From the IMG/VR virus record IMGVR_UViG_3300022745_000018, positions 32,001 through 96,000 of that record: DNA of 64,000 bases; one strand, written 5' to 3'. Origin of the DNA: a virus. Made by a program: the position numbers and the translations under genes. A model generated the notes under the pieces. That model was not told where the DNA came from. It saw only the letters and a program-made list of their open reading frames with translations, and ran no database searches. Numbering within the stretch: the first letter of the stretch is position 1; each line of letters begins with the position of its first letter. Shown here in pieces: positions 47,708-63,192 of the stretch.

Positions 47708-47739
47708 GCCGTACCTCAATTTGTTTTGTCGATGGATGA

Positions 47740-57604: not shown

Positions 57605-57691
57605 TGGAGCGGGTGACAGGATTCGAACCTGCGTAAACTATTCGCCGCTTGCTTGGAAGGCAAGTGCTCTGACCAACTGAGCTACACCCGC
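57605..57691 (-). tRNA. tRNA-Gly(TCC) with 15-nt variable region
   Basis: Cloverleaf folded manually; CCA encoded. Confidence 0.85.
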
Positions 57692-57747
57692 ATGATTTTA
57701 AATAACTTCAAGATCAATTTTATTTCAAATTCGATCATGTAGTTGAT

Positions 57748-57839
57748 TGGTGGAGACGGTGAGATTTGAACTCACGGACCTATTTCTAAGCCGACGATTT
57801 TCAAGATCGTTGCAATCAGCCGGACTCTGCCACGTCTCC
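57748..57839 (-). tRNA. tRNA-Ser(TGA)
   Basis: Cloverleaf, long variable arm, CCA. Confidence 0.9.
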
Positions 57840-57861
57840 GATAATTAAGTTGATTCCAAAC

Positions 57862-57938
<77 letters not shown>

Positions 57939-57959
57939 TCAAAACCTACAATTCAACGG

Positions 57960-58032
57960 TTCCATCTGTTGGATTCGAACCAACGACCTCCCGCTTACAA
58001 GGCGGATACTCTTCCAGCTGAGTTAAGATGGA
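57960..58032 (-). tRNA. tRNA-Thr(TGT)
   Basis: Cloverleaf; ends ACCG (CCA not fully encoded). Confidence 0.88.
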
Positions 58033-58034
58033 TC

Positions 58035-58123
58035 TGGTGCGAAAAGAGAGACTCGAACTCTCACGGTATTTAACTCCCGCCAGAACCTAAATCTGGTGCG
58101 TCTACCAATTTCGCCATTCTCGC
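58035..58123 (-). tRNA. tRNA-Leu(TAG)
   Basis: Cloverleaf, long variable arm, CCA. Confidence 0.9.
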
Positions 58124-58135
58124 ACTGTTTATCAT

Positions 58136-58504
58136 TTATTCACAATTTGTGGTGCCTCGAGCTGGATTCGAACCAGCGACCTTCACCTTATCAAGATGAT
58201 ACTCTACCAACTGAGTTACCGAAGCATGTTCTCTTATGTACTGAGTGATCTTGTACGAATTTGCTACGGTATTGGAAAGATTCTCTTGCAGCAAACTCAG
58301 TACATCGTCCGGATAAGTCTTGAGCCAATGAACGGAGCCATACCATTCCAAACCAAATAACCGAACGAAAAACTTCTTTTTGTATTCAGCTTCAGCTGCT
58401 TCACGACGCTGAAAGAACAATCGATGCAAAGTTTCTGCTTCTGCACGAAGTCGAGCATCTTCTTCCAGCAATTCACCAAGACTTGCAATTTCTTTCTCAT
58501 TCAT
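58136..58504 (-). CDS. Hypothetical protein whose 3' end reads through tRNA-Ile
   Basis: AGGA SD, downstream of class-2 promoter 58607-58632. Confidence 0.5.
   Translation of the reverse strand: MNEKEIASLGELLEEDARLRAEAETLHRLFFQRREAAEAEYKKKFFVRLFGLEWYGSVHWLKTYPDDVLSLLQENLSNTVANSYKITQYIREHASVTQLVEYHLDKVKVAGSNPARGTTNCE
58150..58225 (-). tRNA. tRNA-Ile(GAT)
   Basis: Cloverleaf, CCA. Confidence 0.9.
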
Positions 58505-58637
58505 TTCTCAGAATCCTTAAACTCAAGACCAACTGTGTGAACGACTTCTTCTATCCATTGATCACGAGTTCCATTGTATTTCATGATATCCTCATTGTTG
58601 AATGCAATTATATCATACGCTCAACATGTGGTTGTTT

Positions 58638-58731
58638 TGGTGGCGAAAGTGGGATTCGAACCCACGGGGCGTCTATTCAACACCCGACGGCTTAGCAAGC
58701 CGCTGATTTAAACCAGCTCATCCATCTCGCC
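58638..58731 (-). tRNA. tRNA-Ser(GCT)
   Basis: Cloverleaf, long variable arm, CCA. Confidence 0.9.
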
Positions 58732-58736
58732 GATGT

Positions 58737-58812
58737 TGGACGCGGAAGAGGGACTTGAACCCTCGACACATGACGTATGAAGCCACTGCTCTACCAACTG
58801 AGCTATTCCGCG
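58737..58812 (-). tRNA. tRNA-Met(CAT), probably elongator
   Basis: Cloverleaf, CCA. Confidence 0.82.
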
Positions 58813-58813
58813 G

Positions 58814-58886
58814 CAAATCTGGTAGGATTCGAACCTACGACCTTCGGTTTTGGAGACCGACGCTCTGCCAATTGAGCTACAGACTT
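58814..58886 (-). tRNA. tRNA-Trp(CCA)
   Basis: Cloverleaf; abuts tRNA-Met, terminal CCA not fully encoded. Confidence 0.88.
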
Positions 58887-59367
58887 ATGTTGTTTTATTC
58901 TTGGGAACGAACGTTTCGTCCAACGGTTTCCAAGTAATCGTTGTGAAATTCAGATCGAAATCTGGAATCGGTAACTCAGACGGTTCAATCACGTCTTTGA
59001 TGTTGTAGGCAACAGTCATATGACACTTATATGAAGGATACGTGCTCGTTGCGCCGTTATTCAATAGTACCCTATTCAATGCAGCGGCATAACGACTATC
59101 TATCCTCAGAACGAGACATTTACCTTCCGTCTTTGTCGGAAAGACTTCCCATTCAACTGGAGTTCCCGTGCATGAATTTGGTGTTGCTAAAGTAAACGGT
59201 TTCTTGATCGGTATATCGTCGATAGGTGTCTGCGAATAGATCACTGTGACGTGATACGTATCCGGGTCCAATCGTTCAGATAGACCAAACTTTTCAACGA
59301 AAGCGTCCAACTTATCCTTAGATTCCTCATCAGGATTTAGACAAACAAAAACTCCATCCAAACTCAT
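58885..59367 (-). CDS. acb1: 2H phosphoesterase, anti-CBASS Acb1 / T4 57B-like
   Basis: HVTVIYS and HMTVAY (two HxT motifs); located in tRNA cluster as in T4. Confidence 0.8.
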   Translation of the reverse strand: MSLDGVFVCLNPDEESKDKLDAFVEKFGLSERLDPDTYHVTVIYSQTPIDDIPIKKPFTLATPNSCTGTPVEWEVFPTKTEGKCLVLRIDSRYAAALNRVLLNNGATSTYPSYKCHMTVAYNIKDVIEPSELPIPDFDLNFTTITWKPLDETFVPKNKTT

Positions 59368-59380
59368 GCGATTCTCCAAA

Positions 59381-59530
59381 TCACCAATGTCTGATAACAC
59401 CAGCGATGATAAAAATGTTAGTAATCACCGCGCTCAAGACCAAAATTGATCTAATGATTGCGACTCTATCGGCTTCATTGTTAGATGAACCAGATTTTTC
59501 TCCAAGAGCCTTTGCCCAAATTCTCCACAT
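59381..59530 (-). CDS. 49-aa membrane peptide
   Basis: Manually read MWRIWAKALGEKSGSSNNEADRVAIIR...IIAGVIRHW. Confidence 0.65.
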   Translation of the reverse strand: MWRIWAKALGEKSGSSNNEADRVAIIRSILVLSAVITNIFIIAGVIRHW

Positions 59531-59548
59531 CACAAACCCTTCATTTCA

Positions 59549-59625
59549 TGGAACGCCGAGAGAGATTTGAACTCTCGAAAAATGGATTTGCAATCCATCG
59601 CATTAGACCACTCTGCCATCGGCGC
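59549..59625 (-). tRNA. tRNA-Cys(GCA)
   Basis: Cloverleaf, U73, CCA. Confidence 0.9.
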
Positions 59626-59627
59626 AC

Positions 59628-59701
59628 TGGGGTGTAGTCGGGAATCGAACCCTGGCCAATTGGGTCACAACCAATTATTCTACCACTAAACTAACTACAC
59701 C
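59628..59701 (-). tRNA. tRNA-His(GTG)
   Basis: Cloverleaf, G-1:C73, CCA. Confidence 0.88.
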
Positions 59702-59708
59702 ATAAACA

Positions 59709-59785
59709 TGGCGGCTCGTATGGGACTCGAACCCATGACCTCCACCGTGACAGGGTGGCGCTCTAACCAACTGAGCTAACGAACC
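59709..59785 (-). tRNA. tRNA-Asp(GTC)
   Basis: Cloverleaf, CCA. Confidence 0.92.
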
Positions 59786-59865
59786 ATTGAAGATTGCATA
59801 TACAATCCTCAGGAAATCCGACTGCAGAATTTATATAGACGCGCTGCAGCCTCCGCGCCATTGTC

Positions 59866-59940
59866 TGGCAGAGGAGGTAGGAATCGAACCTACGAATGTC
59901 GGGATCAAAACCCGATGCCTTACCATTTGGCTACTCCCCA
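59866..59940 (-). tRNA. tRNA-Gln(TTG)
   Basis: Cloverleaf, CCA. Confidence 0.9.
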
Positions 59941-59947
59941 ACAAAAT

Positions 59948-60022
59948 TGGTACGACGTGCATGATTTGAACATGCGACCGACGGATTATGAGTCCGCTGC
60001 TCTACCGCTGAGCTAACATCGT
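59948..60022 (-). tRNA. tRNA with CAT anticodon, probably Ile2 (lysidine)
   Basis: Cloverleaf, ACTCATAAT anticodon arm like ileX, A73. Confidence 0.8.
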
Positions 60023-60024
60023 AT

Positions 60025-60116
60025 TGGCTCCACTCCGAGGATTCGAACCTCGCTCCTACTTAATTCAGAACCTCCGGTTAACAGCCGGGTGCCTTCGCCT
60101 AGCCAGCACGAGTGGA
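60025..60116 (-). tRNA. tRNA-Asn(GTT) with long variable arm
   Basis: Acceptor TCCACTC/GAGTGGA, G73, CCA; ~20-nt variable arm. Confidence 0.75.
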
Positions 60117-60239
60117 ATATTCAAATCTTTTTAGATTTACTCTCTATCAAAACAGCATTTCCATGATGGAGGAACACAGATTTCCACTTTTCAACCAATT
60201 GCTCTACTGTTTTCATAAACGAGATCGTCCTATCAAATG

Positions 60240-60332
60240 TGGTGGGTGTGGTTGGAGTTGAACCAACAATGTTTACCACGAGGGGACGGGTTTACAGCCC
60301 GCCGATGCACACACCATAGCATCAACACACCC
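60240..60332 (-). tRNA. tRNA-Tyr(GTA)
   Basis: Cloverleaf with 5-bp D stem, CCA. Confidence 0.82.
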
Positions 60333-60338
60333 AATGAA

Positions 60339-60548
60339 CTTTATACACCTGACGACTCATTCGTCACGCCAGTTTTATTCGTGACCATTTTACCGATACG
60401 ATGAAGCAGCTGCTCGGATTGTGGTACGTAGAATTTAGTTGATAGCGGAGTTTACTAGTTTAGCCTCATTCGCAGAGATTCACTCGTTCGCACGGGTTTC
60501 GAAGCCGCACTTTCTCAACATCTACAACAAATCACCAGGTGTATAAAG
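60339..60548 (-). ncRNA. Unknown structured RNA closed by 13-bp stem
   Basis: Perfect IR 60339-60351 / 60536-60548, no ORF. Confidence 0.55.
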
Positions 60549-60559
60549 ACCGACATGCG

Positions 60560-60647
60560 GTACCATTGTTGAAACATGCTATGGGACCACGCTATAGGGG
60601 CATCGGTCATCCTCCCCAAGCTAATTAACATGTTTCAACAATGGTAC
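60560..60647 (-). ncRNA. Unknown RNA closed by 19-bp stem
   Basis: Perfect IR 60560-60578 / 60629-60647. Confidence 0.5.
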
Positions 60648-60718
60648 TCAGTACGGGATTCGAACCCGTGTTACCGCCGTGAAAGGGCGGTGTCCTAGGC
60701 CAGCTAGACGAACTGAGC
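60642..60718 (-). tRNA. tRNA-Glu(TTC)
   Basis: Cloverleaf, CCA. Confidence 0.92.
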
Positions 60719-60725
60719 ATTGAAT

Positions 60726-60801
60726 TGGTCTCGGATGGAGGATTTGCACCCCCGGCCTCATGGTCCCAAACCATGCGCTCTACTCACTGAGCTAATCCGA
60801 G
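60726..60801 (-). tRNA. tRNA-Pro(TGG)
   Basis: Cloverleaf, CCA; T-loop TGCAAAT. Confidence 0.85.
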
Positions 60802-60859
60802 AAACATTTCGTTTGATGACTATTTATCAGTCTCTCGATTGATCTTTGGTGAAAAATCA

Positions 60860-60988
60860 ATTTTAACAGATGATGCTCTGACCTCTGGAGTCTTTTTCAC
60901 CGCGCTGGTTAGGCTGCTTCATACCGAGACTCGGGTACCAGCCAAGTTTATCGGTCTGCTATCAGTGATGAACATCATCTATTAAAAT
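60860..60988 (-). ncRNA. Unknown RNA closed by 16-bp stem
   Basis: IR 60860-60875 / 60973-60988; the single difference is a G-U pair on the minus strand. Confidence 0.55.
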
Positions 60989-61097
60989 CACTTCAATGGG
61001 TACGACTTGATACGTACTTGAGAAGATCACAAGTACGTCTCGAACCGTATCGCAACTCACCTACTGCATGTCCTATCCATGCCGCCACTGAAATGAT
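60987..61097 (-). ncRNA. Unknown RNA closed by 13-bp stem
   Basis: AUCAUUUCAGUGG / CCAUUGAAGUGAU, two G-U pairs on the minus strand. Confidence 0.5.
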
Positions 61098-61110
61098 ATT
61101 CTATATCTCA

Positions 61111-61302
61111 ACTTCAGTGTTTCGATGCATGCTAAGATCGGCTTTCCAAGACGTTACTGATTGTAGCTGACGGGAGCGACCCGATTGCTGTGGCGTTTCA
61201 CCACCAATCTTTCCTACAAAACACGAAGTATTCGTGTGAGTGAAAGAAGCAAAACTGCCCTATCCGATGACTGCTTTTGTCCATGCATCGAAACACTGAA
61301 GT
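61111..61302 (-). ncRNA. Unknown structured RNA closed by 21-bp stem
   Basis: Perfect IR 61111-61131 / 61282-61302; internal hairpins incl. GUGGUGAAACGCCAC. Confidence 0.6.
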
Positions 61303-61306
61303 CGAA

Positions 61307-61625
61307 ATATTCCATTGATAGTAGTTGCCACTGTAATTTCCGGCATTCACCATCACAACCACAAACTAATCTGCATTGCTACTCGTAAACTTGCAAATTA
61401 AGTATTGCCGTTCCATCTTTTGCATCGTTTAGTTCGCGTCTGTGATGCGTATCAGCCTACGCATTTACTATCAATTCTGCCTACCAGTCACTCTGGTGCT
61501 CCGCGTTGCTGGTAACGAACCAAGGCAGAATTGATAGCAGTGGGGTTCCACTACCCACACTCGAGTTTGATTACTGCGGTTCACTCCGCATATGGACTTA
61601 GAGATCTTGACTATCAATAACATTC
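61307..61625 (-). ncRNA. Unknown ~315-nt structured RNA region
   Basis: Repeated ATTGATAG/CTATCAAT arms; 15-bp IR CTATCAATTCTGCCT/AGGCAGAATTGATAG; UGCGUA-GGCUGA-UACGCA hairpin. Confidence 0.45.
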
Positions 61626-61753
61626 ATGGAGTGGCTGGAGGGATTCGAACCCACGACTCGCCCATGTTAGGAAATGTACATCTCATTAACATGTCGGCTG
61701 TGCATTATTCAGCTCATAACTCTACCAACTGAGTTACAGCCACTCCATGAATG
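61621..61753 (-). ncRNA. tRNA-like RNA with anticodon arm replaced by two hairpins
   Basis: Acceptor, D and T arms intact; 17-bp extended closing stem. Confidence 0.7.
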
Positions 61754-61759
61754 CTTTGT

Positions 61760-61790
61760 TGGTGCGCCTGGAGAGATTCGAACTCCATAA
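61760..61790 (-). pseudogene. Orphan tRNA 3' fragment (T-arm, acceptor strand, CCA)
   Basis: GGAGTTCGAATCTCTCCAGGCGCACCA with no 5' half. Confidence 0.65.
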
Positions 61791-61822
61791 ATATCATCAA
61801 ACTTTATTACACCACTGTTGTC

Positions 61823-62605
61823 ATGTCATACCAAAGATTGAAGTCATCCTGTTTGTCATGTAAAAGACTGATTTCTGCTAATTTATTAACCACACATGTG
61901 TCTAGCAAATCGTGTCAAACATACAAACAACCAAATATCATAAACGGACATTGTAGATTTTGCAATTTGCGCATGGCAGAAATAGAAAACAAAGAACGTG
62001 GAAATCACGTAAAATGGTGCAAAGAAAACCCAGAACGCGGCTTCATGAATGGTTCAAGACAAGCCATCTGCAATCAAATGAACACACCCGCTGCTAGATC
62101 AAAAGCAGTTCTTGGTATAAAAGCAGCCCACGCTAGTGGGCGATACGATGCATCCAATATCAGAAAGAAGAACAAACCCAGACATTCACACTCAATAGAA
62201 ACTAAAGCAAAATTATCAAAGATTGCTAGAGAATCGAAACACAGAAGAATTTGCAAAAGAACACACCAGTTCGTTGATAAAAGAGGGCGTGTTTATAAAT
62301 TCGATTCTTCATGGGAAGATGCACTAGCAACACGATTAGATGAACTAGATATCGAATGGACAAGACCGCATGAACCGATACCATATATCCTGAATGGTAA
62401 ACAACACCACTATTTCCCAGACTTCTTTTTACCAGATTACGATGTTTATCTAGACCCGAAAAACAGTTTCGTCATGAAACAACAATTGGAAAAGATAACG
62501 ATCATTTCCAATTCTGTGAAATTGATATGCATTACGTCTTTGAACGAATGTAAAAGTTTTTCAGTAGATTATATGAGCGCCAGACTGGACTCGAACCAGC
62601 ATTGA
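61823..62605 (+). mobile_element. Putative free-standing homing endonuclease (PD-(D/E)xK type, Zn-finger + NUMOD3-like)
   Basis: CxxC motifs, HSIETKAKLS, DSSWE, YFPDFFLPDYDVYLDPK; antisense to tRNA cluster. Confidence 0.75.
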
Positions 62606-62659
62606 TTCCATTACACTGCTACGCTTTAGAAGAGCGTTGTGATACTGGCGCTCATATAA
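62569..62659 (-). ncRNA. D-armless tRNA-Arg(TCT)-like RNA
   Basis: Acceptor GCGCCAG/CTGGCGC, 7-nt linker instead of D arm, ACGCT-CTTCTAA-AGCGT, long variable region, T arm; 15-bp closing stem. Confidence 0.7.
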
Positions 62660-62663
62660 CCCA

Positions 62664-62767
62664 CAATTCAAAAGAACAATAACGTCTCTTCAATGCATCA
62701 GGCACATCAAAGCCATGTTGGTGGCGGCAACATCTTGGAAAAGAGTCCGCATCGTTCTTTTGAATTG
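62664..62767 (-). ncRNA. Unknown RNA closed by 14-bp stem
   Basis: Perfect IR 62664-62677 / 62754-62767. Confidence 0.5.
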
Positions 62768-62868
62768 GCTCTATTTCTAGAGCCAAAGGAATCAACTTAA
62801 TTTTTAATGAACATTACATACAGCGGTAACCGCCATTTGTTTTCGACTGTTTGTTTGTCGATGGATGA

Positions 62869-62895
62869 ATTTTATACAAGACTCATTCATGTGGT
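62869..62895 (-). promoter_or_regulatory. Class-2 promoter ACCACA-N15-TAAAAT heading the tRNA/ncRNA array
   Basis: Repeat motif plus shared leader TCATCCATCGACAAA. Confidence 0.7.
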
Positions 62896-63192
62896 TGTTT
62901 TCATTTGCCTGCATTCTCTCATTGCCCATTCAATGGTTGAATCAACTTGAGAAATCAGTTCGGTGAATAACGGGCCACCTTCTTCTAATGCCACCTTATT
63001 GCTATCTACATGATAGTAAATGCACAAGAACCCAAATTTCGATTTGATCTGTGTGAACTTGACTGCATCCTCTCCAATCAACCACCAGATTTTTTCCATA
63101 GCATCACCGATCGTTTTATCCCATTCCGAGCAGACTGCAACATCACATCCAGTTGCGATCACCTTCAGAACTCTGGGATCTCGATCAGCCAT
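62887..63192 (-). CDS. Hypothetical protein
   Basis: W..., QIKSKFG.L.IY motif common in small phage proteins. Confidence 0.6.
   Translation of the reverse strand: MADRDPRVLKVIATGCDVAVCSEWDKTIGDAMEKIWWLIGEDAVKFTQIKSKFGFLCIYYHVDSNKVALEEGGPLFTELISQVDSTIEWAMRECRQMKTTT

Follow-up and report, generated by a model that had tools for sequence, protein, structure and literature searches.

Long terminal helices bracket an array of predicted small structured RNAs in the tRNA operon of a distant T4-like phage

RNase III classically cuts helices of about two turns in which the two flanks of an RNA pair with each other, and it acts at such sites in the leader-trailer stalks of ribosomal RNA (rRNA) operons and in T7 early RNA. 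Small stable RNAs other than tRNAs occur in the tRNA cluster of phage T4, in which rnaC and rnaD, both of unknown role, lie back to back after tRNA-Arg (PMC3014915, PMC2330249), together with the gene of the homing endonuclease SegB, which recognises the T-loop region of tRNA genes (PMC2330249). GOLLD and ROOL, two large structured phage RNAs of unknown function, are found in or beside tRNA islands, and a tRNA is embedded in some of them (PMC12286853). Here we describe an array of about nine predicted RNA units (B to J), most of which are closed by a long helix between their two ends, in the tRNA operon of a phage. The array is located at 60339-62767 of a 64,000-nt window that comprises bases 32001-96000 of the IMG/VR virus record IMGVR_UViG_3300022745_000018; all positions below count from the window start. 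The source record (171.9 kb, 99% complete) is an assembly from a freshwater metagenome, and is considered to be a distant T4-like phage because it encodes a DNA polymerase of the T4 gp43 type that is 43% identical to the counterpart of a Synechococcus phage. In comparison with the two RNAs of T4, the array is larger, shows no sequence homology to rnaC or rnaD (T-loop matches only by blastn), and carries long leader-trailer closing helices that are absent from the predicted folds of the T4 RNAs.

The closing helices were first apparent as inverted repeats, for which the whole 171.9-kb genome was scanned with exact arms and a spacer of 30-400 nt. Ten repeats of at least 13 bp were found, seven of which are clustered in the 2.4 kb of the array, as compared with 1.0 per shuffled genome; all five repeats of at least 15 bp are located there, and the genome-wide number at a length of at least 11 bp is 24. 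Counting G-U pairs, the 5.6-kb tRNA region contains 10 helices of at least 12 bp versus 1.2 in shuffles, nine of these helices being part of the units or of an alternative pairing around unit H, and one being inside the open reading frame (ORF) of an Acb1-like protein described below. The bracket helices exist, and far beyond chance. All eight strong inverted repeats listed in an earlier note on this DNA were recovered in place, and the unit interiors are mutually unrelated, as that note had held; no interior recurs in the genome, and every repeat pair is single-copy. The closing helices span 13-29 bp, corresponding to leader-trailer helices of about one to three turns. The units are 88-319 nt in size, with gaps of 0-12 nt between adjoining ones, or overlaps of a few bases (H/G, 5 nt; G/F, 4 nt; E/D, 2 nt; J/I, 1 nt).

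Folding statistics agree for most of the units, with z-scores of -4.1 to -7.8 for C, D, E, F, G, H, I, and J. When the block from D to H was folded as a single sequence of 999 nt (z-score, -12.8), D, E, F, and H kept their closing stems, and the closing pairing of G shifted. Unit G, one of two weaker units in the earlier note, is retained with some reservation: it folds well and contains a perfect 15-bp hairpin at 61468-61537, yet its closing stem is modest and alternative pairings exist. Within it (61314-61618), the sequences ATTGATAG and CTATCAAT alternate in four copies, so that nested or tandem pairings are possible. Unit B, counted among the strong ones, has a real stem of 23 bp, yet its overall z-score is weak (-2.2). 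The second weaker unit (A, 60141-60224, minus strand) was rejected, with a z-score of -1.3, 25 of 200 shuffles folding equally well, and only four terminal pairs; it is better treated as the spacer between tRNA-Asn and tRNA-Tyr.

The mismatches in the closing stems are distributed very unevenly between the strands. Each stem was walked inward from its ends with both strands scored alike, and the 21 non-Watson-Crick positions thus collected comprise 18 that pair as G-U on the minus strand, none that pair as G-U on the plus strand, and three other mismatches. If the drift were blind to the strand, a ratio of 18:0 would arise with a chance of about 4 in a million. Also, the fold of the minus strand is more stable than that of the plus strand by 2.8-11.5 kcal/mol in all nine units. 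Because all 18 wobbles pair as G-U on the minus strand only, we conclude that the stems have been selected in a transcript of the strand that encodes the tRNAs. The earlier note had come to the same view from the G-U pairs of two stems, and the pattern now extends over the whole array.

The same asymmetry bears on the alternative that the repeats act in DNA, whether as hairpins of single-stranded DNA, as sites of recombination or cruciform formation, as miniature transposable elements, or as decayed tRNA genes. The locus does undergo DNA turnover, as is shown by an endonuclease gene and a tRNA fragment in the array, and G-T wobble is tolerated in DNA hairpins, single-stranded ones included, so that the asymmetry is no strict proof of RNA. 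However, the ratio of 18:0 in favour of the tRNA strand rules out double-stranded DNA palindromes and the ends of transposable elements; each repeat pair is unique, so that they do not form transposable-element families, and miniature inverted-repeat transposable elements were rejected as candidates on both grounds. Decay does not produce helices of 17-29 bp. A hairpin in single-stranded DNA keeps a small probability, but nothing favours such an origin. Taken as a whole, an action in DNA appears highly improbable, and the RNA nature of the seven non-tRNA units rests on the strand-specific wobble, the folding statistics, and the context.

Table 1. Positions of the units, of neighbouring features, and of homologues of units H and I
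Feature	Position	Strand	Remarks
Promoter motif	62869-62896	minus	AACCACATGA, 10 nt, TATAAAAT, then conserved leader TCATCCATCGACAAACAAAC
Unit J	62664-62767	minus	104 nt; 17-bp closing helix (27 nt including mismatches); z-score, -4.9
Unit I	62564-62664	minus	20-bp closing helix; core, 62576-62651
Endonuclease-like ORF	61973-62605	plus	210 amino acids; PHROG endonuclease/resolvase families, E 2e-12 to 4e-9
Orphan tRNA 3' fragment	61760-61786	minus	T arm, 3' acceptor strand, CCA; read from sequence
Unit H	61621-61753	minus	17-19 bp closing helix; core, 61627-61743
Unit G	61307-61625	minus	319 nt, multi-branched; modest closing stem; z-score, -4.9
Unit F	61103-61310	minus	208 nt; 29-bp helix (27 Watson-Crick pairs and 2 G-U); z-score, -7.8
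Unit E	60987-61097	minus	111 nt, three-way junction; 13-bp helix including 2 G-U; z-score, -4.1
Unit D	60860-60988	minus	129 nt; 19-bp helix including 2 G-U; z-score, -4.9
18 ordinary tRNA genes	57605-60801	minus	tRNA scan
tRNA-Pro	60726-60801	minus	ordinary; CCA encoded
tRNA-Glu	60642-60718	minus	ordinary; CCA encoded
Unit C	60560-60647	minus	88-nt hairpin, nearly all paired; 22-bp helix; z-score, -7.2
Unit B	60339-60548	minus	210 nt; 23-bp helix (13 Watson-Crick pairs, then pairs including 5 G-U)
tRNA-Tyr	60240-60332	minus	ordinary; CCA encoded
H homologues	L117:5020-5133; L116:819-933; L092:1066-1180; L120:3078-3174		IMG/VR stretches; L092 identical to L116
I homologues	L037:6414-6488; L039:512-586; L040:8491-8565; L041:384-459		IMG/VR stretches

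Two of the units, H and I, are derived from tRNA and are conserved in other phages. The core of unit H scores 40.4 bits on the Rfam tRNA model (RF00005; gathering score, 29 bits), and it has a normal acceptor stem, D arm, and T arm. Where the anticodon arm would be, it carries a stem of 4-5 bp with a 9-nt loop (AAUAAUGCA) and a variable hairpin, and hence lacks the 5-bp anticodon stem with a 7-nt loop that characterises a tRNA. The encoded CCA is buried in the 17-bp leader-trailer helix. The assignment by ARAGORN of unit H as a tRNA-Val with an intron was rejected as a forced fit, as was that of a tRNA-Thr with an intron across J and I. Homologues of H were found in four other phage stretches (Table 1), and unit H was aligned with them to give alignment A1. 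In this alignment, 97% of the cells are paired, and 12 of the 28 pairs show compensatory changes; the 9-nt loop is conserved as A, A/U, Y, A, A, Y, G, C, A, with the variable hairpin after it. These homologues stand alone, no tRNA being detected by ARAGORN in the same stretches, and the H-like RNA has no consistent protein neighbour in other phages; in the neighbourhoods examined (L117 and L120), replication and methylase genes are present. A run of model R1 on 100 of the 112 loci gave no further true member of the H family, the matches of up to 56 bits being ordinary or insert-bearing tRNAs. The combination of a long stem made from both RNA ends with a tRNA-like module is also found in bacterial Y RNAs such as YrlA (RF02553); their module order differs, and the matches to the YrlA model reach 16.7-23.5 bits against a threshold of 69, in the tRNA parts only.

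The core of unit I scores 36.4 bits on the same tRNA model. Its anticodon loop reads CUUCUAA and is carried by a stem of 5 bp, and no CCA is encoded. A 3-bp helix (CAC/GUG) encloses the anticodon arm and covaries with CGG/CCG and CAU/AUG, and the D-loop-like sequence UAAUGGAA with a GG motif, which in a tRNA belongs to a D arm that precedes the anticodon arm and follows the acceptor stem, comes after the anticodon arm instead. On the basis of the enclosing 3-bp helix and the displaced D-loop-like motif, unit I is identified as a rearranged tRNA-Arg(UCU), which ARAGORN misses, rather than a tRNA devoid of its D arm. Leader-trailer pairing lengthens the acceptor stem to 20 bp. A pattern scan of IMG/VR revealed homologues of I on five phage contigs, two of which have an identical sequence and one of which is 405 kb long. 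In alignment A2 of five sequences, all cells (100%) are paired, with compensatory changes in 11 of the 20 pairs. Thus, H and I are conserved RNAs with compensatory changes; compared with an ordinary tRNA, they retain the acceptor and T arms and pass the Rfam threshold, and differ in the 9-nt loop of H, in the D-stem strand and GG motif of I that follow the anticodon arm, and in that both are locked in long helices in this phage.

Other tRNA-related elements were seen in the loci surveyed. Among the 112 loci, many tRNA-like matches of 100-125 nt carry inserts. A phage tRNA at L039:1897-2044 (minus strand; 50.8 bits) is interrupted in its anticodon loop by 78 nt, less than a group I intron would require, and the island on L037 that bears the rearranged tRNA-Arg also contains a transfer-messenger RNA (tmRNA) at L037:2950-3286 (117 bits). 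In the relative G002, a 133-nt non-tRNA stretch between tRNAs (L035:12591-12723) has an inverted repeat of 8 bp (TTGATGCG...CGCATCAA) that closes it, and the T-arm-like sequence GGTGGTTCGAATCCGCC inside; it may be another tRNA-derived module.

In contrast to H and I, the remaining seven units (B, C, D, E, F, G, and J) showed no Rfam match, tRNA included, even at E-values up to 10. The view in the earlier note that the families were not recognisable therefore holds for these seven and not for H and I, and of the checks that it had proposed, the Rfam scan gave a match (tRNA) for H and I only, the two units for which covarying homologues were obtained. A tmRNA-like tag in unit D (peptide ...YEAA) was dismissed as being at the chance level, no tmRNA being detected by ARAGORN or Rfam. 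The short ORFs within the units had no significant PHROG match (best E-value, 0.058). One arm of unit F (61108-61127) is identical in 19 of 20 bases to positions 2891-2910, inside a minus-strand gene (E-value, 0.008), which could be a base-pairing target or a chance match.

We surveyed several collections for relatives of the array. In a set of 50,697 phage records, megablast and blastn matched only tRNAs and the endonuclease gene, and tblastn with the upstream protein gave no match. Among IMG/VR loci, those encoding the upstream 168-amino acid protein were relatives of 44-52% only, without tRNAs nearby, and none was obtained with the Acb1-like protein and the ligase. The 101-amino acid upstream protein found only itself among 5.8 billion proteins, and a scan of metagenome contigs reached 55% identity at best. 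When each unit was compared by blastn with the tRNA islands of G001, G002, and L037-L041, only the tRNA-like parts matched. A second DNA run contained identical fragments of low depth only, and hence no variants.

The brackets are confined to this phage in all comparisons that could be made. No leader-trailer pairing is present in the homologues of H and I, nor in the 18 ordinary tRNAs of the phage itself. In eight other phage tRNA islands (76 kb in total), including those of two distant relatives with 28 and 32 matches to the Rfam tRNA model, long closing helices occur at the shuffle level only. Accordingly, the bracket helices of H and I are an addition specific to this phage, and the long end-to-end helix is best regarded as a lineage addition to non-standard RNAs, since the homologues, the ordinary tRNAs, and the other islands are all without it.

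The units share their strand with the 18 ordinary tRNAs, with which they are partly interleaved, and occupy the upstream, promoter-proximal end of the cluster. Units B and C are situated in the stretch 60240-60801 together with tRNA-Tyr, tRNA-Glu, and tRNA-Pro, and the 5' arm of C starts within the 3' end of tRNA-Glu (GU-A-CCA). The endonuclease-like ORF splits the array between units H and I, with its 3' end overlapping unit I. Therefore, the ORF-free, nearly back-to-back arrangement that had been described is valid for the packing of the units end to end, and is interrupted by the three tRNAs, the ORF, and an orphan tRNA 3' fragment. The ORF is 73% identical in DNA to an Aeromonas phage gene, and its match to Pfam Phage_endo_I is weak and under the cut-off; by that match, the product is a candidate PD-(D/E)XK nuclease, and the gene is a candidate homing endonuclease gene. 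The tRNA fragment, located 6 nt upstream of unit H and beside the ORF, resembles the same part of H. A homologue of the anti-CBASS phosphodiesterase Acb1 (Pfam PF23474; E-value, 7e-20) is encoded between tRNA genes at 58885-59400 on the minus strand; PHROGs names this Acb1-like family 'RNA ligase', which is T4 gp57B.

In many respects, this setting is comparable to that of rnaC and rnaD. In both phages, non-tRNA RNA genes lie back to back on the tRNA strand inside a T4-type tRNA cluster, with tRNA-Arg(UCU) adjoining, an endonuclease gene (a homing one in T4) in the cluster, and Acb1 (gp57B) nearby (PMC3014915, PMC2330249). The endonuclease gene beside a tRNA fragment resembles SegB in the T4 cluster, and the T arm is kept in rnaC as in unit H. 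T4 has two such RNAs, in contrast to about nine in the present phage.

It is conceivable that the units are structured spacers with a local role, which by folding on themselves would spare the neighbouring pre-tRNAs and provide cleavage sites, the excised pieces being discarded. The interleaving with ordinary tRNAs would suit such a role, as would hairpin C, which adjoins tRNA-Glu and takes in part of its 3' end, and the finding that, apart from H and I, no unit is conserved anywhere searched. On the other hand, the elaborate multi-branched interiors amount to about 2 kb, far beyond the needs of a spacer; the 15 tRNAs at 57605-60116 are mostly packed with short spacers and manage without any unit-like structures; and H and I are themselves conserved as RNAs. 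We consider the spacer explanation unlikely, though it is the most probable of the alternatives.

Transcription of the array probably starts upstream of unit J. The motif located there is one of about 17 copies in the genome of a motif of about 50 nt, with the consensus AACnACATGA, 10 nt, TATAAAAT, and then TCATCCATCGACAAACAAA. All copies except a single weak match are in one orientation, ahead of minus-strand genes; other copies are found, for example, at 47720, 50643, and 58625, the last (about 58600) being within the tRNA cluster. Elsewhere, the copies are followed by a Shine-Dalgarno site and then ATG, whereas the copy at 62869-62896 leads into unit J instead. Because the aligned copies precede a Shine-Dalgarno site and ATG, the motif is regarded as a phage promoter with a conserved leader. 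The earlier note had already placed a promoter at the head of the array; it is one of the conserved copies, yet it was not listed by a generic sigma-70 scan at a threshold of 9 of 12 positions. Both the generic sigma-70 and terminator scans gave results at the shuffle level.

Based on the helices, the strand asymmetry, and this setting, we favour with moderate confidence the reading that the units are co-transcribed stable RNAs, bracketed by helices for RNase III-type processing or for stabilisation. In this scheme, the operon would be transcribed from the motif upstream of unit J, by read-through across the inserted endonuclease gene or from a second start beyond it, and the bracket helices would be the entry sites for a double-strand-specific nuclease of the host (RNase III type). 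The helix stub left over may then shield each released RNA from exonucleases, and the tRNA-like ends of H and I would be exposed by trimming and by RNase P. A double-strand nuclease of the host is favoured because there is almost no single-stranded linker for cleavage of the RNase E type. As in the stalks of rRNA operons and T7 early RNA, a helix of about two turns formed by the flanks brackets a functional RNA in a polycistronic transcript; unlike in those, the RNAs here are many, small, and unrelated, they belong to a tRNA operon, and their cleavage is predicted. Co-transcription, RNase III cleavage, and stability are our inferences.

Several points weigh against this reading. The interiors of the seven non-tRNA units are without covariation support because no homologue was present in the collections searched, and, as described above, G-T wobble in single-stranded DNA hairpins keeps the strand asymmetry from being a strict proof of RNA. 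Among the sequencing runs holding this DNA, no RNA run is listed. A gene for RNase III was not found in the phage. The 13-bp helix of unit E is short for an RNase III substrate. Two minus-strand terminator-like sites are located inside the antisense of the endonuclease ORF, and units H to D may therefore need a start of their own. In addition, the helices appear to be dispensable for the H and I RNAs as such, because the homologues mature elsewhere unbracketed.

A different view of the central block is that units D to H (about 900 nt) constitute one giant ornate RNA of the GOLLD or ROOL kind, with self-closed domains and an embedded tRNA-like element. GOLLD and ROOL occur near phage tRNA islands (PMC12286853), and the tRNA island of the relative G002 has a true GOLLD with an embedded tRNA (L034:9888-10356; 173.5 bits), which served as a positive control in our search. 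The domains abut without linkers, and the strongly stable 999-nt fold has a possible outer pairing between 60813-60830 and 61785-61800. This AT-rich pairing of 14 bp with one bulge could enclose D to H in that fold, and may be due to chance. However, no match to GOLLD (RF02032; threshold, 150 bits) was obtained at E-values up to 10 in the whole genome and the region, nor to ROOL or any other Rfam family at the same limit; no helices between domains are predicted besides the weak outer pairing; and the same bracket design is used for B, C, I, and J elsewhere in the operon. In contrast to GOLLD and ROOL, the locus thus presents itself as independent small self-closed units without a covariance-model match, and a single giant RNA seems improbable.

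As to function, the units may counter host defence, either as decoys for systems that target tRNAs or sense RNA or as antitoxin mimics, as suggested in the earlier note; such a role is compatible with processing at the bracket helices. Phage tRNA clusters are known as counter-defence loci (PMC13096335), the gene for the anti-CBASS protein Acb1 is in the same cluster, and unit H retains the tRNA elbow and acceptor without an anticodon. The hallmarks of type III antitoxins (ToxI-like), however, are lacking, with neither tandem direct repeats nor a match to any Rfam family, antitoxin RNAs included; a Ro60-like partner protein was looked for without success, the Ro60/TROVE domain being absent from the phage genome; and the homologues of H whose neighbourhoods were examined (L117 and L120) are located among replication and methylase genes rather than defence-related ones. 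The context of Acb1 is the sole hint left for the decoy proposal, to which we attach little probability. There is a slim chance that the lineage has turned unrelated small RNAs, among them two conserved tRNA-derived ones that other phages have without brackets, into clamp cassettes that are excised by a double-strand-specific nuclease and, with at least seven undescribed classes among them, serve as stable effectors during infection, for instance, as decoys or sponges for tRNA-directed or RNA-sensing defences.

The array is new in that one lineage has systematically bracketed many unrelated units, conserved tRNA-derived ones among them. Counter-defence is a role increasingly ascribed to phage tRNA clusters, and their companion RNAs (rnaC, rnaD, GOLLD, and ROOL) are functionally unexplained. 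The present locus is unusually clean in this respect, with about nine distinct structured RNAs in 2.4 kb that are delimited by helices and show a G-U pattern of selection on the transcript. The exact boundaries of the units make every RNA directly accessible to cloning and testing. Should the brackets prove to be processing stalks, the phage would have a second, RNase P-independent way to dice a tRNA operon, and the array would represent a natural design for freeing arbitrary small RNAs from one transcript.

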